A stretch of DNA of 64,000 nt from Candidatus Poriferihabitaceae bacterium (GCA_965204925.1 OZ242021.1:2222454-2286453); one strand, 5' to 3'; positions 3,629-30,266 are shown, counted from the stretch's first letter. The notes: generated by a model not told the origin, from the letters alone. Translations and numbers: made by a program.

Positions 3629-4927
3629 TTATTCGGTGTGAGCGTCCAGCGTCCGGGTTGCCTGAACCGCCTTGTCGACATCCAGGCGCCAGAGCATACA
3701 GCCGCCTCCGACAAAGAGGATGACCAGAACCAGAATGCTGTCGCGGGCGCTGGCGCCTGCGATCATGATCGGTACGAATGCCATCAGGAACGGGCCGAAG
3801 ATACTGGCAAACTTGCCTACCATATTATAGAAACCGAAAAATTCGGCAGTCTTCGCTTGTGGAATCAAACGGGCAAACAGGGAGCGGCTCAGACTTTGCA
3901 CTCCACCCTGAACGAGGCCGATGGTAACGGCCAGCCAGTAGAAATCGGCGGCGGAATCAAGCCATTTCCAGGCATAGATTACGACTGCGGTATAGACCAG
4001 CAAACCGATCAGTATGCCGCGTTTGGGGCCGATTTTCTTGCCCAGCCAGCCAAAGAACAGGGCGGCAGGGAATGATACGAACTGGGTCAGCAACAGCGCC
4101 GTAATAAGGCTTTCCGGCGGCAGGCTCAGGATGCGGTCGGCGAAAAATACCGCTGTCTTGAAGATTGTGCCAACGCCGTCAATGTACAGCCAGTAGCTTA
4201 CCAGGAACAACAGGACATATTTCAGTTTGCGGATTTCCCGAAAGGTTGCGGCCAGGCGCCAAAAGCCTTGTCCGATCGTTTGTGTTTTCGGGGCGGCAGC
4301 CGGTTTTTCCGGTTCTTTGACAATGTATAGTAAAGGCAGCGTAAATACTGTCCACCATATGCCGACAGAGACAAAGGACAGGGACAGGGCGCTGGCCTGA
4401 TCGGGGATGCCGAACCATTCGAAGCGGGTAACCATCATTACGTTGATCAGGAAAAGCAGCCCGCCTCCGATATAGCCGAGGGCGTAGCCGTAGCCGGATA
4501 CGACATCCATATCCTCTTCGGACGATACTTCGACAATCAGCGCATCATAGAAGATCATGGAGCCGGAGAATCCGATCTGCCCGAGGCCGTAGACGATCAG
4601 CGCTATCCACCACATTCCTGCCCCTACCCATGCCAGTCCAACGCACATCAGGATTCCGAGCAGGGAGAAGCATGCCAGGAATTTTTTGCGGGAACCGCCG
4701 GAATCGGCGATAGCCCCCAGAACAGGCGCTGCGATGGCAACCAGGGCGCTGCTTATGGCCAGGGTCATGTTGAACCAGAACTGGGAATCGTTGACGCTCA
4801 GGCCGGATGACAATGCGCTATAGAAAACCGGGAAGAATCCGGCAATGACCGTAGTCGCGAATGCCGAGTTGCCCCAGTCATACAATGCCCAGGCGACCAC
4901 CTTTTTGTCAGTCAGGATTGTGCGCAT
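3629..4927 (-). CDS. MFS transporter, UMF1/Atg22-like family
   Basis: 432 aa with about 12 TM segments and the N-terminal signature MRTILTDKKVVAWALYDWGNSAFATTVIAGFFPVFY typical of Atg22/UMF1 MFS proteins. It lies 25 bp upstream of the decarboxylase, so the two probably form an operon. Confidence 0.8.
   Translation of the reverse strand: MRTILTDKKVVAWALYDWGNSAFATTVIAGFFPVFYSALSSGLSVNDSQFWFNMTLAISSALVAIAAPVLGAIADSGGSRKKFLACFSLLGILMCVGLAWVGAGMWWIALIVYGLGQIGFSGSMIFYDALIVEVSSEEDMDVVSGYGYALGYIGGGLLFLINVMMVTRFEWFGIPDQASALSLSFVSVGIWWTVFTLPLLYIVKEPEKPAAAPKTQTIGQGFWRLAATFREIRKLKYVLLFLVSYWLYIDGVGTIFKTAVFFADRILSLPPESLITALLLTQFVSFPAALFFGWLGKKIGPKRGILIGLLVYTAVVIYAWKWLDSAADFYWLAVTIGLVQGGVQSLSRSLFARLIPQAKTAEFFGFYNMVGKFASIFGPFLMAFVPIMIAGASARDSILVLVILFVGGGCMLWRLDVDKAVQATRTLDAHTE
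4269..4317. repeat. Source copy of a 49-bp patch (MFS interior) that recurs at 6855-6903
   Basis: tgtccgatcgtttgtgttttcggggcggcagccggttttt[c/t]cggttctt is present at both loci, matching at 48 of 49 positions. Confidence 0.9.
4815..4927. repeat. Source copy of a 113-bp direct repeat (first 37 codons of the MFS gene) that recurs at 9778-9890
   Basis: Manual alignment of gcgctatagaaaaccgggaagaatccggcaatgacc…gtcaggattgtgcgcat shows one mismatch (gcgaCcacc vs gcgaTtacc region: C/T). Homology stops exactly at the MFS ATG. Confidence 0.95.
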
Positions 4928-5078
4928 GAAGTGATCCGTGATGGTCTGCAGCGGGGTTCAGCCAATGTGGGTTTCCATGGGCGGAGCATATATTGCGTAA
5001 AGCGATGTTTCAAGGAGGGAACCCCGCACTGAAAATCAGACGAGGACACGACCCACGCAGCCATGTAAAAGAGCCACT

Positions 5079-6699
5079 CTAAAGCGACCGGTAATAATCA
5101 CGAATTTTTCTGGCCATAAGACGCCGGCGCTCTTTCAGGAAGCCGTTGTAGTTATCGACGTCCATCTCTTCCATGTCCTCGGGTATGCAGTGAGCCTGAA
5201 GGTTCGCGCGTAGCTCGTCAGCGTCGGTGATGCCGCCGTATCCGGATTCTCCATTCGCGCATTGGCGCCACAACGCGCTGAAATACGAAGCGGGCGGAGC
5301 ATCGCCGATGGCGATGTTGATCTCGCCTTGCATCACCACATAGTTCGCGATCTGGTTGTAGGCGCCGCGAGCCAGACCGCGCTTCTTCAGATAATTCCGT
5401 GGAAAGACGTGGTGGACCTGGGAGGCGCCTTCCAGCAGAGTCCGAACGGTATGGCCGTTCGACAGGAATCCCTTGTCGTTTCCCTTGACCTGACTCGCCA
5501 GGAACACTTTGAAATAAGAGCTGCTCGCCACTGAGGTGTCCATCTGTTGCGGTAGGCCAGTGTCCCAGAACACATCCGACAGCCTGGCCTGCTCCACCGC
5601 TTCAAGGCAGTCCTGTGCGTTCTGTTCCGTGATGTTGCGGATATCCACACCGAATGCGGTCTCCGGCGAACCCGTGTATCGGCCGGTGAGAACGGACATG
5701 ATGAACCAGCGACGCACCAGTGTCTCGATGAGCGTCGGATGCGTGTCCCGCGCGCGTAACGTCAGATAGACGATATAGGCGAAGTTCACGGCATTCTGCG
5801 ACCGGATCATTGATGCGTTCACGAACCCTGCCGAGCGCAGGATCATCACGAAGCGCTTGAAATTCGTCTCGTTCATGAAACGCAGGAGCGCCGCATCAAG
5901 CCTGCTGAACGCATCCTCGGCGATCACCTCCTCAAACTCGCTGTCGCCAGCGAGTTCGGAATACGCTTCCGGCGCCACGGCGAGGTGGCAGAAATAATCA
6001 ATGCACTTTCGCAGTTGGTGGCCGTTGTACCTTTCGTTCGCCGCCATCTTCGACATGGCGAAGTCTGCCGCATTCAGCGTAACGCCCTGTGAGTTGATAC
6101 GGACGAATATCTCCGAGACGGTTTCCACATTCAGATCGGCATTGAGTTCGATGAGGCCGAGTAAATTGTTGCGGATGCCCCGCAGCCATTCAATCCGTTC
6201 GTAGATCTGGTCTTTGTTTGATTCCGGGTTGCTCTCGCAATAGGCGTCGACCACTCGAAGCAGTCTGGTGTCGGGGGTGAACAGGGTTGCGATGTCGGCA
6301 AGCCATGCCCTGTCGCGCTGGATGGCGGGATTGGCCACCTCGAACCGTTCCTCACCGGGATGGAACGCGACCGTGATACGCACCTTCCGGTAGCTCTTGT
6401 TGACGACCTGCTGCCCGAGCATGGCTGCCATGAGCGCCGTGACACGCTGCTGGCCATCAAGTAAGAGTGCGCTTGCCCGCCGATTTGCTTCCGTCCTTCA
6501 ACCGGACGGAGGGATTACGCCAGGCGATGAGATACCCGACCGGATAGCCGAAATACAGCGAGTCGATGAAATCGCGCGCTTTCGCTGCGTTCCAGACAAA
6601 CGGTCGTTGAATCTCGGGGATTGCAATCTCGTCGGACTTGATCCAGGTGAGCAGCGTCTGGACCGGATGCTGATTGACCGAGTAGCGTTGGATGGTCAT
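5079..6699 (-). pseudogene. GmrSD-like type IV restriction protein (DUF262 N-terminal + DUF1524/His-Me-finger C-terminal), interrupted by a frameshift near 6465-6500
   Basis: The 80-aa ORF 6457-6699 carries the DUF262 start ([34 protein letters not shown]) and stops at 6457. The DGQQR motif (…[17 protein letters not shown]…) continues in a different frame into the 450-aa ORF 5079-6431. That ORF ends with an HNH-like block (HHVFPRNYLKK…NYVVMQGEINIAIGD). Confidence 0.75.
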
Positions 6700-6836
6700 G
6701 GCGGCTCCTGATATGCGATGTCCCGACAGCTTCGAGTTCGTTCTCTTTGTTTTGAAGGGCGCTGCAGGGTTTTTTATTTTTTGATGTCGAAATTCGATAC
6801 TATGGGTGACTGTTTCGAACTACCACAGCAGATCGG

Positions 6837-6845
6837 ATTATAACA
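6837..6845 (-). promoter_or_regulatory. Extended -10 element (TGTTATAAT on the minus strand) upstream of the DUF262 gene
   Basis: The reverse complement of attataaca at 6837-6845 is TGtTATAAT. It lies about 135 nt upstream of the ATG at 6699, which is preceded by the SD caggagcc. Confidence 0.35.
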
Positions 6846-6854
6846 TTTCGGGAG

Positions 6855-6903
6855 TGTCCGATCGTTTGTGTTTTCGGGGCGGCAGCCGGTTTTTTCGGTT
6901 CTT
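6855..6903. repeat. 49-bp patch copied from the MFS gene interior (4269-4317), sitting at the seam between the DUF262 module and the R-M module
   Basis: 48 of 49 positions are identical to 4269-4317, in the same orientation. Confidence 0.9.
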
Positions 6904-7057
6904 CAGGAAATCACGTGGCCAATCGCCGATCTGGCAACCCGCCGGAGGGGTGGCCTTGTCCGCATACTCCTGACGCCTGCGTTTGCATCCGAAAATCCCG
7001 CCGAATCCACCAAGGGATGTCCTTGGCGGGAATTGCTGGGATGGGTTCACCGCAATT

Positions 7058-7085
7058 TTGACATGTGTCCCGTCTAATTTATAAT
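7058..7085 (+). promoter_or_regulatory. Perfect consensus sigma70-type promoter TTGACA-N16-TATAAT pointing toward the methyltransferase
   Basis: ttgaca at 7058-7063, a 16-nt spacer, and tataat at 7080-7085, read directly from the sequence. Confidence 0.5.
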
Positions 7086-7400
7086 CCTCCGACCCGATGC
7101 ATAGTTGATGCTTCTAACATTTGGCCGCCAAGCGATGCTCTCTCAGCCGAAAGTGCTTTCTTTACTAATCCTTAGTCCCGACGAGCTTCAGCTTTCCGTC
7201 TCCTCTAACAGATCAATTACCGTTATGCCCCAAGGCACAATTATGCTAGATTGTCCGCGTTGGTCAAAGTGTTTACTGAAATCGGACGACGCCCCCGACG
7301 TGGCCCAAAACGAATTTCAATTGCTCCAGCGCGCGCCGATGCCTGCTGCACAGCGGTCATCTGGATGCTGTAGCGCGGATTCCCTCTTGCGTGGCGCGGC

Positions 7401-8435
7401 TTGTTTCAAGAGCTACCGCTCTGGCGGTTCACACTCTTTCTTCGGAGCATAGCGCCCTTGACCAGTTCCTCGACACCGAATACCCCTATAGACCAACTGT
7501 TTGGTCGTCAAAGTTCTCCAACGGAGCCAACACAAATTACGATATCCGCAGGCGCCTGCCACTCTCGGAAAAACGCAACAATAATTCACGGTGATTGCCT
7601 GGATGTTCTGCCGGCTCTCCCGAGTAGTTCAGTGGACCTCATTTTTGCAGATCCTCCGTATAACATTGGAAAACAATTCAGGAATTTCAAAGACTCATGG
7701 TCCTCTATCCACGAATACATGGATTGGTGCTACAGGTGGCTTGAACATTGTATCCGAATCTTAAAGCCAACAGGTAGTATGTATGTGATGATGAGTACTC
7801 AGTCGATGCCTTATCTTGATATTTGGCTGAGAGATCGTGTCAATATTTTGTCGAGAATTGTTTGGCACTATGATAGTTCAGGTGTACAAGCGAAATCCTG
7901 CTTTGGTTCCCTTTACGAACCGATACTCCATTGTTCAAAAGATAACAAGCATTACACATTCAATGCCAACGACATCGCTGTCGAAGCAAGAACGGGGGCA
8001 GTTCGGAATCTGATCGACTACCGCAAGGAAGTCCCCACTCCATACAATACAAGGAAGGTTCCTGGTAATACCTGGTATATTCCACGTGTTCGATATCGGA
8101 TGCCAGAGTACGAAGAGCATCCAACGCAAAAGCCTGAAACTCTATTGGAGAGGATAATCAAGGCTAGTTCAAATACTGGGGATATTGTGCTTGATCCATT
8201 CGGTGGTACATTTACAACATGTGCAGTGTCCCAACGTCTAGATAGAACATCAATTGGAATCGAACTTCAGTTAGATTTTGTCAAGATTGGCATTCGCCGA
8301 CTTGGAATTGCTGATCGTTTTAGGGGTGAGCGTCTCCACTCGCCGACTAAATCATACCGTCGCAAGAACAGAAAGAACGTGGATGGCCCTGAGGAAAAGA
8401 GAGTACAAAAGGAGCTTTTCGATGGGACCATTTGA
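7401..8435 (+). CDS. DNA methyltransferase, beta-class N6-adenine/N4-cytosine family (N6_N4_Mtase), DPPY type
   Basis: Motif IV (DLIFADPPYNIG) precedes motif I (DIVLDPFGGTFTTC), which is the beta-class order. The catalytic region starts around 7570 (NATIIHGDCLDVLP). The annotated start is a TTG and the true start is uncertain. Confidence 0.88.
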   Translation: MFQELPLWRFTLFLRSIAPLTSSSTPNTPIDQLFGRQSSPTEPTQITISAGACHSRKNATIIHGDCLDVLPALPSSSVDLIFADPPYNIGKQFRNFKDSWSSIHEYMDWCYRWLEHCIRILKPTGSMYVMMSTQSMPYLDIWLRDRVNILSRIVWHYDSSGVQAKSCFGSLYEPILHCSKDNKHYTFNANDIAVEARTGAVRNLIDYRKEVPTPYNTRKVPGNTWYIPRVRYRMPEYEEHPTQKPETLLERIIKASSNTGDIVLDPFGGTFTTCAVSQRLDRTSIGIELQLDFVKIGIRRLGIADRFRGERLHSPTKSYRRKNRKNVDGPEEKRVQKELFDGTI

Positions 8436-9561
8436 AATCACTCGTCACGACTTCACCCAAACTATTCTGGAGACCCTGGAAGAACATTTCGGCGAAAGCG
8501 CTTCCGACATCTTTTCGAGTAGTCCAATACTCGGGTATCTCAACACAAAAACAAAATCTGCACATCGTGGGTCGAAAGCACGAGGATCGTTCGCCAATCA
8601 CTACGCATTGTATGTTGTCGTGGAAGATTATATTCAAAAAGGATTTCTGGAAAGGACTGCCGGTACGGCTTATGCTCAATATGAAGGCGCTCGATTTTCC
8701 GATCTGTTTCGGCGACAACGAGAATTGCCATTCGGCGCCAAGTTGCAAAATCACGCGCTTAATTCACGTCTCAATGATGAATTTCGAAAATTCTACCCGA
8801 CAGTGGGGAAGTTACCCATTGTTCGTAATTTGGAAACGCAACGCTATTGGGTGCAAGAGGATCTTCTCTTATTGACGATTCGTGATAGTACGGGTAAAGA
8901 TTACACTTACAATATTTCGCAAGCAATCATTGATATCATTGATAAATACGTCCAAACCAAGAGGGCAGCGTTCCAGAAGTTTATTGACACCTGCCGACAA
9001 TTAGCAGAATCAGGAAGCGAGGTTTCCCAGAAGGCTATCAATTTTGTTATAGAGCAGCTTGCGCCTGATGTGGACGCGCGAGTTTTTGAAATCGTGAGCT
9101 ATGCTATTCTGAAGGCGAAATACCGACAAGATAACATTTGGATAGGGGAAACGCGAGAGGACGTTGCGGAGGAGGTTCTGGTTCTGTATAAGACAGGACG
9201 AACAAATGCCAATGATGGAGGTATCGATTTTGTCATGAGGCCGCTGGGTCGATTTTTTCAAGTAACTGAAACCATAGACGCAAACAAGTACTTCTTGGAT
9301 ATTGATAAGATACAAAAGTTTCCAATTACGTTCGTCGTTAAATCTACGCAAAGCGTGGAACAGATAAGAGGGGAAATTCGAGAAAAGGCTGTACAGAAAT
9401 ATAAGATTGGGGCAGTCGTCGAAGCGTACATGGATGCTGTGGAAGAGATTATCAATGTTGAGTGCTTGGTTAATGTCTTCAACGATATCGTCGAATCAGG
9501 AGAATTGGGAAGCGTTATGGAAGAAATTATCTTGCAGAGTAAGGTGGAATTCAATTACTAG
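8422..9561 (+). CDS. Putative restriction endonuclease partner of the methyltransferase
   Basis: The ATG at 8422 is preceded by aaaaggag and overlaps the MTase 3' end by 14 nt, suggesting translational coupling. An Mrr/PD-(D/E)XK-like block is present (…TGRTNANDGGIDFVMRPLGRFFQVTETID…). I did not recognise a named family. Confidence 0.5.
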   Translation: MGPFEITRHDFTQTILETLEEHFGESASDIFSSSPILGYLNTKTKSAHRGSKARGSFANHYALYVVVEDYIQKGFLERTAGTAYAQYEGARFSDLFRRQRELPFGAKLQNHALNSRLNDEFRKFYPTVGKLPIVRNLETQRYWVQEDLLLLTIRDSTGKDYTYNISQAIIDIIDKYVQTKRAAFQKFIDTCRQLAESGSEVSQKAINFVIEQLAPDVDARVFEIVSYAILKAKYRQDNIWIGETREDVAEEVLVLYKTGRTNANDGGIDFVMRPLGRFFQVTETIDANKYFLDIDKIQKFPITFVVKSTQSVEQIRGEIREKAVQKYKIGAVVEAYMDAVEEIINVECLVNVFNDIVESGELGSVMEEIILQSKVEFNY

Positions 9562-9617
9562 ATAGTGTCGCCACAAGAAAGGGCCAGTGTATGGTATGAT
9601 CGACGGATGGGAATTCT

Positions 9618-9778
9618 TTTCAACCCAGCGAAGTGAAGCGCAAGAGAACCCACGGGTTTCGTGAACGTATGCGTAACCCGCGGGGGGCGCGCGATTATCA
9701 ATGCACGCCGAGCCAGGGGGCGCGTCCGTTTAAGCGCTTGACGAAATTGAGTCATGTCGCCGCTCACGGCTGGCCTCG
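9618..9778 (+). pseudogene. Truncated, frameshifted duplicate of rpmH (from codon ~5) plus the first ~8 codons of rnpA
   Basis: Aligns to 12577-12736 with one extra A (gcgtaacccg vs gcgtacccg) and one substitution. It lacks the rpmH start codon and promoter. Confidence 0.9.
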
Positions 9779-9890
9779 CGCTATAGAAAACCGGGAAGAA
9801 TCCGGCAATGACCGTAGTCGCGAATGCCGAGTTGCCCCAGTCATACAATGCCCAGGCGACTACCTTTTTGTCAGTCAGGATTGTGCGCAT
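9778..9890 (-). pseudogene. Duplicate of the first 113 bp of the MFS gene (MRTILTDKKVVAWALYDWGNSAFATTVIAGFFPVFYSA…), fused to the rpmH'/rnpA' fragment
   Basis: Matches 4815-4927 at 112 of 113 positions. The junction with the rnpA' fragment is at 9778 with about 1 nt of shared sequence. Its ATG lies 4 nt after the stop of the AAA-ATPase gene. Confidence 0.9.
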
Positions 9891-9894
9891 CCAG

Positions 9895-11460
9895 TTACCC
9901 CGTCCGCATGGCCGCAAGGTTGCGCTTGTCGCGGTCAAATACAAGGGCAAGCAGATGAATGCGTCGGTTCCCCGTGCGGTACTTGTCGGCATAGCCCTTA
10001 TCTCTTATCTGCACAAGCGCCTGTTCTGCCTTTGCTTCCACCTGCGCTTCATCCGCTACTTTCAATTCCAGTACAAATACCTGATTATCCCGTACCAATA
10101 CCATGTCGGAACGTCCCCGCCAGGTGGAGTCTTCGGGATGAACCTTGACACCCAGTGTGATAAAACAGGCATAGAGCAGGGAAGCGTAATAACCTTCGGA
10201 ATATCCTCCATCCTTGCGGCGTTGCCACTGATACGGAATACCGGCAAAGAACGCCTGCAACTCCCGCTCAAATCCCGCAAAGTCGCTGGCATCCAGCAAG
10301 GCAAGCCAAGTCTTGACGTACCGTGAGGTTTGCACCAAATCCCCGGTAACCGCCTCCAGCAACTGATTGTTCAGGCTCACCTTCACTTCATGGTTGGGAT
10401 AGTCCAGTGTGAAGGAGATTCCGGCAGGACCAGTCTCTTCATCGACAATGGTCAGATAGCCGCACTGGAATAACAGGGCGTTGAGATTGACTTTGCCGAC
10501 CTCGAATGTGGACAGGTCGCTGCGGCGCATGACCAGATTCTCAAGGTCCAGTGTATTGACCTCTCCGCTTGCCATGCGGTCATAGAGGAATGAAGGTGTG
10601 CCGGTCTCATACCACCAGGGGATGAACTCTCGTTTCTGGAGATACAGCAGGATGTCGAACGGGTTATAGACTTTCTCCTGCCCGCGCCAGTGATAGCCGT
10701 TGTACCAGTGGCGGATGTTCTCGCGCTCTTCTTCCGGTATATCTTCCAGTTCCGCGGCGAATACCGTTTCCAGGTCATTCTGGGTATAACCGCACAGCGT
10801 GGCATACTCAGGGTCCAGGCTGATGTCGTTGAGATTGTTCAGCTTCGAGAACAGACTGACCTTGGAGTACATGCTGATACCGGCAACAAAGACGAAGCGA
10901 ATGTAGCGAGCGCAGCCCTTGATCATGCCATAGAAACCGCGCAGAAAGTCGCGGTTCTCTACAGCCAGTTCCTCATTTTCCAGCACATCGAGGATCGGCT
11001 TGTCGTATTCGTCTACGAGAACGACAACCTGCTGCCCGCTCTTGTAATAAAGACGCTCTATGAGGCTGCGAAGGCGGGTCGGACCGGTATCCGCTTCTGT
11101 GTCCGGCTCAAGACCCTGGCGGTACTCTATATTCCTTAACTGCAGCATGACATCCTTTTCGAGCTCCCCTGACTCATTGTATTTGCCGTCAAAACTCAGA
11201 CGTACGACCGGATGGCTGATACTCCAGTCCCAATGTTCATGAATATGAAGTCCGCGGAACAACTCCTCGCTGCCGGCAAACAGTTCATGCAGCGTATCTA
11301 TGAGCAGGCTCTTGCCAAAACGGCGCGGGCGCGACAGGAAGTAATATCCGGGCCTTCTTGTCAAATTCCAGATATGGGGGGTTTTATCCACATAGTAAAA
11401 GTTCCACTTGCGAATGTTGCCAAACGAAGCATCGCCGATCGGTAGTTCCAGTCTGTCCAT
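9895..11460 (-). CDS. AAA-ATPase-like / PD-(D/E)XK nuclease family protein (AAA-ATPase_like + PDDEXK_9, former DUF1703 architecture)
   Basis: The N-terminus (FGNIRKWNFYYVDKTPHIWNL…GYYFLSRPRRFGKSLLIDTLHELF) is characteristic of this family. The C-terminus has a D…ExK block (GRSDMVLVRDNQVFVLELKV). Confidence 0.8.
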   Translation of the reverse strand: MDRLELPIGDASFGNIRKWNFYYVDKTPHIWNLTRRPGYYFLSRPRRFGKSLLIDTLHELFAGSEELFRGLHIHEHWDWSISHPVVRLSFDGKYNESGELEKDVMLQLRNIEYRQGLEPDTEADTGPTRLRSLIERLYYKSGQQVVVLVDEYDKPILDVLENEELAVENRDFLRGFYGMIKGCARYIRFVFVAGISMYSKVSLFSKLNNLNDISLDPEYATLCGYTQNDLETVFAAELEDIPEEERENIRHWYNGYHWRGQEKVYNPFDILLYLQKREFIPWWYETGTPSFLYDRMASGEVNTLDLENLVMRRSDLSTFEVGKVNLNALLFQCGYLTIVDEETGPAGISFTLDYPNHEVKVSLNNQLLEAVTGDLVQTSRYVKTWLALLDASDFAGFERELQAFFAGIPYQWQRRKDGGYSEGYYASLLYACFITLGVKVHPEDSTWRGRSDMVLVRDNQVFVLELKVADEAQVEAKAEQALVQIRDKGYADKYRTGNRRIHLLALVFDRDKRNLAAMRTG

Positions 11461-11814
11461 TGTCGTTTTTTGTCAGGAGAATATCTGCCGATCATAGCAC
11501 AACGCAGACCTCGCATTTCCTGTTACCGATACCCTTCCTTATACATTTACAGAACTGCACCGAAAGCGGCCAGGCGCCCCGGATTTTTAGTAGAAAAAAT
11601 TGTTGGGTTACCGGTTCTCGTGCTACTATTCGTCCCGCACACTTTGGAAGCGCCCCCTTCGGGTCGCCCGTGAAATGAAACAGCCTCTGCGCGACCTCGG
11701 CCCCTGGAACCAAGGTCCGGTGAATACGCGGGAATCCTCAGCGTTCCGCTTCCGATTGTGTGCAACCGGCCCGGCGCCAGATTGCCGGGATTGTCTCACC
11801 TATCGGAAGCATCT

Positions 11815-12205
11815 ATGCTAAAGAACTCACTTGTCTTTGTCGGCGCTCTGGCATCCTTAATCCTTTCCGGCTGTGCAACGATTACCCAGGGCACGGATGA
11901 CAATATCCGTCATGCGCATAGGGACAGAAAGCTCCGGGCTGACGATTGAACAGCCGTTGCGGGCCGAGTCGGGCAGTGGAACATTTCGCGTCGAAAACGG
12001 CTGGATAGAGAACGGCACAAGGCTTTATGACCAGTACCGTATTCCATTGCGCCCCGATGCGCGGGAACTGCGTCTTGCCTTGCGTCATGAACGGCAGGTT
12101 GCCGGCGGCGGTATCGCTGTCGAGGCCAGCCATGCCATGAATGCCGGCTATGTGTCCGGAGAATCGGAGACCGGCATCGGCGTGGCGTACCGCATGACAT
12201 GGTAG
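11815..12205 (+). pseudogene. Possible lipoprotein gene interrupted by a frameshift near 11900
   Basis: MLKNSLVFVGALASLILSGC has a signal peptide and lipobox, and this frame stops at 11949. A 110-aa ORF continues in another frame to 12205. The reading is compatible with a 1-nt indel but is unproven. Confidence 0.3.
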
Positions 12206-12489
12206 CGCGGTATCGCATTTCCTGCTTTGCGCTGGCGTCCGTGGTCGCGTTCGGCGCCGCCTGCCGGGGGGCGCATGAAACACATAGTGTGTCCGTTCCG
12301 GCAGATGCCCTTGTCGAAGATGGCGTTGTCTACACTCCTGTGGCCCGCGGCCCGCAGGGATGTGTACTTTACAACTTCGAGATTCCCGGCGGCTATGCTC
12401 CCGCCGCCCTTGTGTACCGGAGCGTTGAAGGCGAATTCAGCTATGATCGCCCGGACCGATGTGTGCAGAGTCCGGAGACCCGGCCATAG
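12199..12489 (+). CDS. Hypothetical small secreted or lipoprotein
   Basis: 96-aa ORF with an N-terminal hydrophobic signal-like segment (CFALASVVAFGAAC). No recognised family. Confidence 0.3.
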   Translation: MVARYRISCFALASVVAFGAACRGAHETHSVSVPADALVEDGVVYTPVARGPQGCVLYNFEIPGGYAPAALVYRSVEGEFSYDRPDRCVQSPETRP

Positions 12490-12502
12490 CCGTTGTTTTC
12501 TC

Positions 12503-12531
12503 TTGAATTTCGCGGGCAAACCGGGTAAATT
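12503..12531 (+). promoter_or_regulatory. Candidate rpmH promoter (TTGAAT-N17-TAAATT)
   Basis: ttgaat at 12503-12508 and taaatt at 12526-12531, about 35 nt upstream of the rpmH ATG. Confidence 0.35.
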
Positions 12532-12564
12532 GTGCGACCCTTCTGATCGATACCGAACAAAGAT

Positions 12565-12699
12565 ATGAAACGTACATTTCAACCCAGCGAAGTGAAGCGC
12601 AAGAGAACCCACGGGTTTCGTGAACGTATGCGTACCCGCGGGGGGCGCGCGATTATCAATGCACGCCGAGCCAGGGGGCGCGTCCGTTTAAGCGCTTGA
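12565..12699 (+). CDS. rpmH: 50S ribosomal protein L34
   Basis: My own translation gives [44 protein letters not shown] (44 aa), a classic L34 sequence. It is below the ORF-track size cutoff. Confidence 0.95.
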
Positions 12700-12711
12700 C
12701 GAAATTGAGTC

Positions 12712-13101
12712 ATGTCGCCGCTCGCGGCTGGCCTCGGACGACATCAAAAATTGTTGAACGGCGCTCAGTTCAGGGCGGTTTTCAAGCGGAGGATTTCAGT
12801 TCGCGGCCGGTATTTCGTCCTGCATGTCGCCAGCAATGCGCTTTTGCACGCCAGGTTGGGGCTGTCCGTTTCCAGACGGGTCAGCAAAAAAGCGATTGAA
12901 CGCAACCGTATAAAGAGACAGATCAGGGAATCGTTCCGGACCAATCAGTGGATGCTGTCGTTCGCAGATCGTTCGACCGATTGCGTGGTTGTGTCCAGGG
13001 CAGGCGGCGTTGAACAACCCAATCGGATACTGAAGAAAGACCTGGACAGTTTGTGGACCAGAGCGAGGCGAAAATGCGAGAGTTGCCAGGGAAAATCGTG
13101 A
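12712..13101 (+). CDS. rnpA: Ribonuclease P protein component
   Basis: 129 aa immediately after rpmH, with an RnpA-like basic sequence (…FVLHVASN…LGLSVSRRVSKKAIERNRIKRQIRESFR…). Confidence 0.9.
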   Translation: MSPLAAGLGRHQKLLNGAQFRAVFKRRISVRGRYFVLHVASNALLHARLGLSVSRRVSKKAIERNRIKRQIRESFRTNQWMLSFADRSTDCVVVSRAGGVEQPNRILKKDLDSLWTRARRKCESCQGKS

Positions 13102-17632: not shown

Positions 17633-19951
17633 ATGCTGAAAACCAACGGCTTTGTCGATCTTCGGATCGGTCACGGCGCCACAGGCATCGGGGATGAAAG
17701 CGTATGGCCGTCTTTCACCGACATCATGACCGTCGTCGTTATGATATTTCTGATGACGCTGGTCGTCATCATGGTGCGCAATTTTGGATTGAGCAGTGAG
17801 TTGTTGACCAATATCTCGGCCAGGGAGGCGGCGATGTTGGCCAACCAGGATCTGGCGCAAAAAAACACGGAACTGCAAGCCTCCCTGCAAAGCACGGAAA
17901 GCGAACGCTCCTCACTCGCCGTATCGCTGGCGCAAGCGTTTGATCGCATTGCCTTGCTTACCGAGAATCAGCTTGAGCTACAGGCAGACCTGGAGTCAAT
18001 GGCGGCGGTGCGCGAGGAGCTTGAGCAGGCAAATACGCGGCTGCGACAGGCCCAGCTTGAGACATTGACGGAGGTTGAGGTTCTGACTGCCGACACGGAG
18101 AGCCTGGCGCGGCAGAAACTGGAGCTTGAGTCTGCCTTGCAAGGTACGGAAGTTGCGTTACAGGACACGAGAGCCGAGTTGCGGGGTACGGAGGCGGAAC
18201 GGTCTTCGCTGGCGGAGTCGCTTGAGCAGGCGCTTGAGCGGATTGGCGCGCTTGTCGAGAGTGAGCGCGGGTTGCAGGATGAAGTAGCGCTGTTGACGGC
18301 GACGCGGGAAGAGCTTGAGTCTGCCTTGCAAGGTACGGAAGTTGCGTTGCAGGACACGAGAGCCGAGTTGCGGGGTACGGAGGCGGAACGGTCTTCGCTG
18401 GCGGAGTCGCTTGAGCAGGCGCTTGAGCGGATTGGCGCGCTTGTCGAGAGTGAGCGCGGGTTGCAGGATGAAGTAGCGCTGTTGACGGCGACGCGGGAAG
18501 AGCTTGAGTCTGCCTTGCAAGGTACGGAAGTTGCGTTGCAGGACACGAGAGCCGAGTTGCGGGGTACGGAGGCGGAACGGTCTTCGCTGGCGGAGTCGCT
18601 TGAGCAGGCGCTTGAGCGGATTGGCGCGCTTGTCGAGAGTGAGCGCGGGTTGCAGGATGAAGTGGCGTTGTTGACGGCGGCGCGCGAGGAGCTTGAGCAG
18701 GCAAACGCGCGGCTGCGGCAGGCCCGGCTTGAGACATTGACGGAGGTTGAGGTTCTGACTGCCGACACGGAGAGTCTGGCGCGACAGAAGCTGGAGCTTG
18801 AGTCTGCCTTGCAAGGTACGGAAGTTGCGTTACAGGACACGAGAGCCGAGTTGCGGGGTACGGAAGCTGAACGGTCTTCGCTGGCGGAGTCGCTTGAGCA
18901 GGCGCTTGAGCGGATTGGCGCGCTTGTCGAGGGTGAGCGCGGGTTGCAGGATGAAGTGGCGTTGTTGACGGCGGCGCGCGAGGAGCTTGAGCAGGCAAAC
19001 GCGCGGCTGCGGCAGGCCCGGCTTGAGACATTGACGGAGGTTGAGGCTCTGACTGCCGACACGGAGAGTCTGGCGCGGCAGAAGCTGGAGCTTGAGTCTG
19101 CCTTGCAAGGTACGGAAGTTGCGTTACAGGACACGAGAGCCGAGTTGCGGGGTACGGAAGCTGAACGGTCTTCGCTGGCGGAGTCGCTTGAGCAGGCGCT
19201 TGAGCGGATTGGCGCGCTTGTCGAGAGTGAGCGCGGGTTGCAGGATGAGCTTGCCGGGCAGACTGCCAACGAACTGCTTTTAAGCCGAAATATCGGATCG
19301 CTCAATGAAACGTTGGCCGAGTTGGAGATACAGTCCGAATCTCGCATCTCTTCTCTCATTGAAGAAAGAGCCACATTGGAGGAGCGCATCCATAGCCTGT
19401 CCCGGCAACTTGAGCATTTGCAGCGGTTATTGGCCCGATCCACTCTTGAGAATCGGTTGCTGAGTGAGGAAATGGCGCAAGTGGAAAGAATCAATGAAAG
19501 CGCGTCGGAACGATATGCCCGCGTGGCTGATGAGATTTTGTCACTGCAAGAATTGATCGGGCAAAGAGAAGCGGAAATTGCCGCTTTGCAGGCAAGTGTG
19601 GATACGTCCGCCCGGCAATACCGCTCCCTGCAGGAGGAGTACGAAAGTCTTGATGCCCAGTATCGCAGGCTGGTTCGTCCCGCGAGAAGCCCGGCCGGGA
19701 AAACAGTGGCTGAAATCAGGGTCGGGAAAAACGCCGGGGCCTGGTCATATGAGATCAAGCAACCGGGCGACATCCAATGGACGCAGGTTTCCCGAGGCCA
19801 GATGGATTCAACCTTGCAGAAACTGAAAAACCGGCTGGGTACATCGCTGTATACGAAAATCGTCATTCCTGACGACAGCAACCTTACTTTTAATGAGGCT
19901 TGGGGTTTTACCTGGGAGATCCTGCAAAAGTATGATTATTATTACCAATAG
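17633..19951 (+). CDS. MotB/ExbD-like single-TM anchor protein with a long tandem-repeat coiled coil and an unknown C-terminal domain (no OmpA-like domain seen)
   Basis: The N-terminus (…[24 protein letters not shown]) mirrors the MotB TM with its conserved Asp (E. coli YADFMTAMMAFFLVMW). About 650 aa of heptad-like E/L/A/Q/R-rich sequence follows, ending in a ~110-aa non-repetitive C-terminus. The ATG at 17633 is preferred; a GTG at 17603 would overlap the upstream gene by 17 nt. Confidence 0.55.
18023..19250 (+). repeat. In-frame tandem repeat array: five 189-bp units (63 aa) and three 105-bp linker units (35 aa), also readable as 294-bp higher-order repeats
   Basis: The unit start gagtctgccttgcaaggtacgg occurs at 18128, 18317, 18506, 18800 and 19094, giving spacings of 189, 189, 294 and 294. 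The linker gagcaggcaaa[t/c]gcgcggctgcg… occurs at 18023, 18695 and 18989. Copies differ by only a few nucleotides. Confidence 0.95.
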
Positions 19952-30190: not shown

Positions 30191-30266
30191 GGCCAGGTAG
30201 CTCAGTCGGTAGAGCAGTGGACTGAAAATCCTCGTGTCGGCAGTTCGATTCTGTCCCTGGCCACCA
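30191..30266 (+). tRNA. tRNA-Phe (anticodon GAA), with encoded CCA
   Basis: ggccaggtagctcagtcggtagagcagtggactGAAaatcctcgtgtcggcagttcgattctgtccctggccacca is 76 nt with a cloverleaf and a T-loop (GTTCGATTC). It closely resembles E. coli tRNA-Phe. Confidence 0.9.

Follow-up and report, generated by a model that had tools for sequence, protein, structure and literature searches.

A composite islet with a restriction-modification cassette and scars of host sequence between the MFS and rpmH genes of a sponge-symbiont gammaproteobacterium

Introduction

By what route do defence-type genes settle in a short spacer between two host genes when no recombinase accompanies them, and do they arrive as one island or as several pieces? 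The question is raised by the locus between the divergent genes for an MFS transporter and for ribosomal protein L34 (rpmH) in Candidatus Poriferihabitaceae bacterium, a sponge-symbiont gammaproteobacterium of the Arenicellales / Ca. Poriferihabitaceae type. The DNA analyzed, called the window throughout, is a stretch of 64,000 nt (GCA_965204925.1 OZ242021.1:2222454-2286453), and all positions are given in window coordinates. A preliminary description had placed here, at 4928-9617, an AT-richer defence island with a GmrSD-like nuclease gene and a Type II-like restriction-modification (R-M) pair, lying between the MFS start codon and a fragment of rpmH.

The reading towards which we lean, with confidence only slightly better than even, is that of a decaying composite islet, in which three "naked" modules were assembled independently of any recombinase, a tandem duplication and deletions followed, and the R-M pair works as a Type II system. 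The evidence comes from the empty site in related genomes, from the composition of the modules and from three short copies of host sequence in the islet. The features of the locus are collected in Table 1.

Extent of the insertion and the empty site in relatives

In three relatives (L002, L091, and L092, with MFS genes 82, 87, and 88% identical to that of the window, respectively) the locus is empty: a PLP-decarboxylase-MFS block is followed by a spacer of 135-170 bp and then by the divergent block rpmH-rnpA-yidD-yidC-mnmE. The window segment 4928-5016 aligns with the MFS-proximal half of this spacer, a single blast segment to L091 spanning the MFS gene up to position 5016, and 12499-12564 aligns with the rpmH-proximal half, promoter included. 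Both halves thus align to the short spacer of the relatives, and therefore all of 5018-12498 (7,481 bp) was inserted at a single point of the ~160-bp spacer between the divergent MFS and rpmH genes. At most ~11 nt of spacer between the aligned halves was lost at the insertion point, and removal of 5018-12498 alone restores the empty site. None of 16 relatives carries islet genes near its MFS gene. The preliminary description had proposed the MFS-rpmH interval for comparative genomics, and this comparison bore it out in one respect, as the genes are not conserved core and the interval of the relatives is a short spacer only. Taken together, a horizontal origin is supported for the genes of the islet, which appear to be of defence type and are absent from the locus in the three relatives. 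Both of the edges given earlier have to be moved, as 4928-5017 is native spacer and the insertion continues beyond 9617 to 12498.

Three modules of differing composition

The supposed island had been taken for one AT-rich unit of 4.7 kb. Sliding windows of 500 nt show 43-46% guanine-cytosine (GC) within 7501-9750 and 50-59% on either side, and the R-M coding region (7531-9561) has 43.9% GC compared with 55.3±1.8% in host segments of equal length (z = -6.4), its tetranucleotide distance being deviant too (z = 5.6). The GmrSD-like unit, in contrast, is host-like at 57.3% GC (z = +1.1), so that the claim of AT-richness stands for the R-M pair and falls for the GmrSD-like part. In the third module, which comprises a gene with AAA-ATPase_like and PDDEXK_9 domains (AAA gene hereafter) and two small open reading frames, the gene has 52.9% GC and the stretch at 11.5-12.5 kb has 57.9%; among the modules of the islet the deviation is limited to the R-M unit. 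Instead of a single AT-rich unit we find a portion of a composite, 7.48 kb in length, to which three or more modules contributed. They were acquired separately, differ in composition and have separate homologs on unrelated contigs.

Scars of host sequence inside the islet

Comparison of the window with itself revealed three pairs of repeats (mid/mid', b/b', and a/a'), all of them direct. The order along the window is mid, a, [left spacer half, GmrSD pseudogene], mid', [R-M], b'|a', [AAA gene, small open reading frames (ORFs), right spacer half], b. The rpmH' and MFS' fragments (b' and a') are thus internal to the islet and do not flank it, and mid' lies between the GmrSD and R-M modules. Fragments b' and a' are joined through one shared G and form a chimera of 273 nt between the R-M and AAA modules. 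The copies in these two joints, mid' and the chimera, are ~99% identical to the flanking genes of the genome. Read from this order, b'|a' is a head-to-tail joint of the interval from the MFS 5' end to rpmH, as expected from its tandem duplication or from a circle of it. A minus-strand ORF of 144 aa at 9558-9992, in which MFS codons 1-38 are fused to the antisense of the rpmH fragment, is almost certainly spurious and carries a risk of mis-annotation.

Outgroups allowed the differences between copies to be polarized. Compared with 12577-12736, b' carries an additional A and a single substitution, each of them derived in b'; the single difference between mid and mid' is derived in mid', and the single difference between a and a' is derived in the functional copy, a' keeping the ancestral base. 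The mid region is ~70% conserved between species, yet the two copies are 98% identical inside the window genome, and therefore the fragments were copied from the DNA of the own lineage.

An assembly artefact, with two strain variants stitched in tandem, would be one trivial source of such a structure, since the window comes from a metagenome-derived contig of 2.62 Mb and strain mixtures are common in sponge symbionts. The joint between the end of rpmH and MFS codon 38 is, however, novel sequence, which an assembly graph with two alleles in a bubble would not produce; the repeat copies, moreover, differ by substitutions and an indel instead of being identical. We regard an artefact as extremely improbable.

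The ten joints of the islet show 0-1 nt of microhomology. No target duplication or inverted repeat was found at any of them, and 5017/5018 compared with 12498/12499 shows no target duplication. No inverted repeat exceeds 21 nt in length and the islet ends have none, the only tRNA gene is tRNA-Phe at 30191, with none nearer, and ORF and Pfam scans of the islet, joints included, detected no recombinase or transposase ORF or remnant. The earlier remark that no recombinase, tRNA attachment site or inverted terminal repeats were to be seen therefore withstood ORF, Pfam, tRNA and repeat scans. That mobility relied on host recombination, through the duplication, had also been suggested; host or illegitimate recombination is a reasonable agent because the microhomology at the junctions is only 0-1 nt, and what has to be given up is the notion of the 113-bp MFS repeat as a simple flanking target duplication.

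This notion deserves a closer look, as it amounts to an alternative in which 4928-9778 is one defence island inserted in the 5' end of the MFS gene, with the 113-bp repeat as a long target duplication. The nearest described phenomenon is insertion with long target duplication (Nobusato et al. 2000; Furuta, Abe & Kobayashi 2010, PMC2853133), and the screen of PMC2853133 looked for R and M genes inside an insert of <20 kb, a repeat of >30 bp and no mobility genes. Formally our locus passes it: its 113-bp repeats (112/113) stand 4,850 bp apart and enclose both genes, mobility genes are absent, and in the relatives the empty locus has the MFS repeat only once. Type II R-M genes, the lack of integrase and transposase, and 113-bp direct repeats of host sequence are thus shared with the described cases. 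The geometry that defines them is, however, not that of the islet. The DNA between the MFS repeats is not purely foreign, as its first 90 bp are native spacer and its last part is the rpmH fragment; the second repeat sits in the middle of the islet, fused to a fragment of the gene from the opposite side, and is followed by the AAA gene insertion and not by native spacer. The GmrSD and R-M parts also differ in composition, and their homologs are found separately. A simple target duplication was rejected on this geometry, since removal of 5018-12498 is needed to regain the empty site, and insertion of one island in this manner appears improbable to us.

Table 1. Features of the MFS-rpmH locus in window coordinates.
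Feature	Position	Strand	Basis or remark
Functional MFS (Atg22-like) transporter gene	3629-4927	-	Pfam
mid, interior MFS segment, source of the 49-nt patch	4269-4317	-	self-comparison
a, MFS codons 1-38, source of the MFS' copy	4815-4927	-	112/113 identical to 9778-9890
Left half of the MFS-rpmH spacer, native and outside the islet	4928-5017		alignment to L091
Promoter-like site for MFS	5013-4985	-	within the native left spacer half
GmrSD/BrxU-like DUF262 pseudogene (coding 5079-6699)	5021-6701	-	Pfam, PADLOC, DNA match to L086
Joint DNA, 153 nt	6702-6854		no match in window or fetched loci
mid', 49-nt copy (48/49) of MFS 4269-4317, same orientation	6855-6903	-	self-comparison
195-nt stretch with perfect sigma-70 consensus promoter facing the R-M genes	6904-7098	+	TTGACA-16-TATAAT at 7058-7085
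Non-coding leader of the R-M cassette	7099-7530	+	conserved with L081, L082, L087/88
Beta-class N6-adenine DNA methyltransferase, YhdJ-like	7458-8435	+	Pfam, NCBIfam, PADLOC; start predicted
Candidate Type II restriction endonuclease, 379 aa	8422-9561	+	PADLOC REase_II
Joint DNA, 56 nt	9562-9617		no match in window or fetched loci
b', rpmH pseudogene fragment, from codon 5 through the first 37 nt after the stop	9618-9778	+	copy of 12577-12736, reaches into rnpA
a', MFS codons 1-38, ends exactly at the ATG	9778-9890	-	copy of 4815-4927, 112/113
AAA-ATPase_like + PDDEXK_9 gene, 521 aa, intact	9895-11460	-	Pfam; absent from relatives
Two small lipoprotein-like ORFs (11815-, 12199-12489)	11461-12498	+	no Pfam match
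Native right spacer half with rpmH promoter (CTTGAATTT ... TAAATT)	12499-12564	+	alignment to relatives
Functional rpmH (L34)	12565-12699	+	followed by rnpA (12712-), yidD, yidC

A proposed history of the islet

In the history that we favor, the spacer would have accumulated the modules by illegitimate insertion, with no recombinase involved. The interval from a to b, that is from the MFS 5' end to rpmH and then about 8 kb long, would next have been duplicated in tandem, and two deletions would have followed, in which the left copy lost its AAA half and the right copy its GmrSD/R-M half, so that the joint and one of each module were left. The mid' stub could go back to an earlier duplication of this sort, which started at 4269 and of which nearly all of the second copy was deleted. 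This route of duplication plus deletion does not require an insertion hot spot and keeps a single insertion point in the spacer. In the islet as it stands, the GmrSD-like gene would be inactive and the R-M pair would act as an ordinary Type II system, the methyltransferase (MTase) making ATGCA*T and the endonuclease cutting unmodified sites.

Selection probably stabilizes the present repeats, whatever the route. If a and a' collapsed, the R-M pair would be lost, with post-segregational killing as a consequence, together with the MFS promoter; if b' and b collapsed, rpmH would lose its promoter and its first four codons. The repeat pairs would be locked in because either collapse is harmful.

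Several observations weigh against this history. The order of events and the route of duplication plus deletion are read from one sequence, because no conspecific genome was found: the best non-self match in the MFS homolog search was 88%, exact-protein look-ups of the restriction endonuclease, L34 and MFS proteins gave no match, and a metagenome scan with the MFS-5' pattern returned only relatives at 78-85%. The genomes with the empty site are other species, with MFS identities of 82-88%. The same final order could also be produced by multi-step template switching or by a merger of two alleles.

In such a merger, an allele with the GmrSD and R-M modules would have been joined head-to-tail with an allele carrying the AAA module, by Campbell-type integration of a circle, homology-facilitated illegitimate recombination or unequal exchange, and the merged form would have been kept since a chromosomal R-M system resists replacement by an R-M-free allele. 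The final order a-X1-b'|a'-X2-b is exactly that of two alleles in tandem, and the ancestral base in a', set against the derived one in the functional copy, also speaks for it. According to the work cited in PMC3874152 (Handa 2001; Sadykov 2003), chromosomal R-M systems resist allelic replacement in experiments, and the survivors keep both alleles in duplications. On the other hand, an R-M allele standing alone would have neither the rpmH promoter nor codons 1-4, the same ≤11-nt point of the spacer would have to be hit twice independently, each time with a one-sided deletion, and no conspecific alleles were found. We consider a merger unlikely, though still to be taken seriously.

The duplications of Handa and Sadykov, as far as they are presented in PMC3874152, resemble our locus in having a head-to-tail joint that separates an R-M-bearing side from one free of R-M. 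They differ in that theirs involved IS3 or long engineered repeats and homologous recombination; the joint described here has 1 nt of microhomology, and little of the duplicate survives. It is a rather doubtful idea that the rpmH'|MFS' joint preserves, as a fossil formed in nature, the resistance of an R-M system to its replacement. An R-M-free allele or sister copy could then have been fixed only in tandem with the R-M-bearing one, and the harm of either collapse would now hold the arrangement in place. If this were true, a selfish R-M system in the wild would have shaped the chromosome beside an important ribosomal-protein gene, without insertion sequence (IS) elements or long repeats.

The restriction-modification pair

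The divergent MTase with DPPY motif and the overlapping putative endonuclease of the preliminary description are both present. In the MTase, IFADPPYNIGK precedes DPFGGTFTT, the motif order of the beta class (DPPY, FxGxG), and the protein matches Pfam N6_N4_Mtase (5e-54), PADLOC MTase_II (5.6e-125) and NCBIfam PRK11524 (442 bits against a cutoff of 292). Its relatives in the PDB are CcrM, M.RsrI, and M.MboIIA. A DNA search with the MTase against E. coli genomes gave no match, and YhdJ was taken by its coordinates for comparison; the MTase is 58% identical to YhdJ of E. coli K-12 over 253 residues, central region included.

The ATG of the endonuclease overlaps the 3' end of the MTase gene by 14 nt, with an AAAGGAG Shine-Dalgarno sequence upstream, and the identical overlap is retained in five other cassettes. 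The endonuclease matches PADLOC REase_II PDLC03455 (1.1e-152) over positions 3-367 of 382, and no Pfam, NCBIfam or PDB sequence match was obtained for it. Its family is large, with more than 6,000 matches, the best 120 of which are all at least 68% identical, and some members are named "restriction endonuclease" by NCBI. Homologs on plasmids of Leptospira, Lactiplantibacillus, Acetobacter, Escherichia, Klebsiella, and Enterobacter always adjoin yhdJ-type genes. Distant relatives occur on seven IMG/VR viral contigs, and none was found in the phage record collection. At columns conserved in at least 95% of the family the window copy has one private change, compared with 0-9 in the 32 other members compared. 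Its AlphaFold2 (AF2) model has a mean predicted local distance difference test (pLDDT) score of 79.9, which falls below 50 at residues 238-267, around an invariant NDGGIDF motif that may be the catalytic loop.

The MTase is full-length, and the ATG with which its family starts (about 7527) is ACG here (window 7524-7532 reads ATT ACG ATA instead of ATC ATG ACA). The frame is open upstream to TTG 7458, with GGAG 10 nt further upstream, and to TTG 7401, and the predicted start is one of these two. A promoter of perfect sigma-70 consensus, TTGACA-16-TATAAT at 7058-7085, is directed toward the R-M genes. The sequence ATGCAT at 7097-7102 lies 12 nt downstream of this promoter, near the expected transcription start; it is one of two in the 64-kb window and is not conserved in L081 or L082.

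YhdJ methylates ATGCA*T (PMC9239280). The MTase probably makes the same modification and the pair would then have ATGCAT specificity (NsiI/AvaIII-type), because of the 58% identity to YhdJ and the scarcity of ATGCAT in host DNA: the host part of the window has one site where 6.4 are expected, and ~106 kb from relatives has seven where 11.2 are expected. With YhdJ of E. coli and Salmonella and with NsiI/AvaIII-type Type II systems the pair shares the beta class, with DPPY before FxGxG, and the under-representation of ATGCAT in the host DNA of the window. Unlike YhdJ, which is an orphan, the window MTase is paired with an overlapping endonuclease gene and lacks the ATG of the family.

AAGCTT (the HindIII site) was rejected as a target of the pair, since it is equally depleted in relatives without the cassette. 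Counted over the whole window and the loci L001, L002, L005, L091, and L092, it is strongly avoided in both (1 against 10.2 expected in the window, 5 against 20.5 in the relatives), which points to a possible lineage-wide exposure to another R-M specificity.

The R-M pair looks functional and is probably live; we consider it alive because so well conserved an endonuclease would be lethal without its MTase. Speaking against a working system are the missing family ATG of the MTase, whose expression is only predicted, the small counts behind the depletion of ATGCAT, and the candidate status of the endonuclease fold, for which the best Foldseek match of the model in the PDB, Kpn2I, is not significant (E = 0.22) and the loop has a pLDDT of <50.

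The cassette in other genomes

The R-M unit at 7099-9561 has 73-87% identical DNA in five unrelated contigs (L081, L082, L087, L089, and L090). The homology always stops at the stop codon of the endonuclease (9557-9562) and begins variably, at 7099, 7137, 7202, 7464 or 7572. In all five contigs the cassette has 42-46% GC inside flanks of 51-66% GC. To judge from these alignments, the R-M pair is a widespread low-GC cassette that would be moving as bare genes, compositionally foreign in all six high-GC contexts seen.

Upstream of the genes, a leader of ~430 nt is 75-87% conserved between the window (7099-7530), L081 (8675-9100), L082 (8757-9118), and L087 (6772-7100). Two explanations of it as coding sequence, a lost third gene and an N-terminal extension of the MTase, had been suggested by a 521-aa call in L087 and a 233-aa upstream ORF in L090. 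Both were rejected, since the indels are not multiples of three, the translation is of low complexity and the ORF of L090 is unrelated. An Rfam scan of 4700-12800 gave no match.

The neighbors of the cassette bear on a further alternative, namely that integrases or transposases brought the modules within IS-composite or integrative elements, the genes and ends of which were later deleted. DDE transposases, rve, Transposase_mut, and integrase fragments lie next to the cassette in L081, L087, and L090, a homolog of the GmrSD-like gene on contig L086 is near resolvase and integrase fragments, and the viral contigs with distant endonuclease relatives could be read in the same sense. Against it, nothing of a transposase or integrase is left at the ten joints, which also show neither terminal inverted repeats nor a short target duplication, and the cassette of L082 has no transposase or integrase neighbor. 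Delivery by such elements seems quite improbable, and we retain recombinase-independent insertion as the favored origin of the modules.

The GmrSD-like gene

The DUF262/DUF1524 nuclease gene described earlier is indeed a DUF262 gene on the minus strand; its DUF1524 domain is not detected by Pfam and its reading frame is not intact. It is split over two frames of this strand, as ORFs 6457-6699 and 5079-6431, each of which matches Pfam GmrSD_N/DUF262 and the PADLOC candidate HEC-05. PF03235 is matched with E-values of 1.6e-10 and 9e-5 by the two pieces and of 1.4e-28 by an intact homolog (P0121). A +1 frameshift lies within 6457-6499, where dropping any one base fuses both ORFs into a protein of 539 aa. 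Nearly all of the best 120 homologs have 597 aa, and compared with P0121 (80% identity) the window copy has lost 58 residues in one block, by an in-frame deletion of 174 nt at 5934-5941, between AACTCGC direct repeats of the intact gene. The GmrSD-like gene is a pseudogene, dead through its frameshift and 58-codon deletion.

At the DNA level, 5021-6701 is 86-89% identical to contig L086, the context of which is unrelated. There the gene is the last of three overlapping ones (7209-9794), after those for a DUF6884 protein and a 197-aa protein and encoding itself a 597-aa DUF262 protein. The homology of the window ends 2 nt before the ATG of the GmrSD-like gene, so that both upstream partner genes are missing. 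The trio with DUF6884 may be a three-gene system, the window retaining only its last gene.

The GmrSD/BrxU Type IV enzymes (DUF262-DUF1524; PDB 7p9k) are the known systems with which the gene can be compared. It shares with them a DUF262 domain with the IPxIQRxFVW and DGQQR motifs, and the family profile matches BrxU (7p9k) in the N-terminal domain at 3.3e-8. In the C-terminal part, a segment with an H-H…N…N pattern (HVHHVFP…NQIANY…EIN) is collinear with residues 471-539 in the nuclease region of BrxU, a match below threshold, and DUF1524 (PF07510) had no Pfam match at E ≤ 0.1, even in the intact homolog P0121. The AF2 model of P0121 (pLDDT 47) was too poor for use. What sets the window gene apart from these enzymes is its frameshift, the loss of 58 codons and of the two upstream genes of L086, and the undetected Pfam DUF1524.

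The third module and other DNA of the islet

PADLOC had no match for the gene with AAA-ATPase_like and PDDEXK_9 domains. Blast searches of this gene and of 6702-7098, 9562-9617, and 11461-12498 against all fetched loci gave no match, and neither did Pfam on the small ORFs of the joints and of 11.8-12.5 kb. The ORF that starts at 11815 has a LILSGC lipobox and a stop after 44 codons, and it seems to continue in another frame (11873-12205); 11815-12205 may be a further frameshifted gene within the islet.

Outside the islet, an ORF of 772 aa (17633-19951) between mnmE and mnmG contains repeats in tandem (189 and 294 nt; 84-99% identical) at 17894-19285. The homolog of this ORF varies in length among relatives, from 565 to 772 aa.

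Significance

The current view of R-M and GmrSD biology is unchanged by this locus, which is an ordinary kind of islet with an instructive pattern of scars. It is a worked example of how a "defence island" recognized from sequence can be a mosaic, in this case with one module probably alive, one dead and one without a known defence role, and of how an apparent target duplication can be the scar of an internal rearrangement. It also offers a modest lead on rearrangement scars linked to R-M systems. A low-GC R-M cassette would have settled in this symbiont without a recombinase, leaving head-to-tail and patch scars of local host sequence, and the methylome of the symbiont is predicted to carry N6-methyladenine (m6A) at ATGCA*T.

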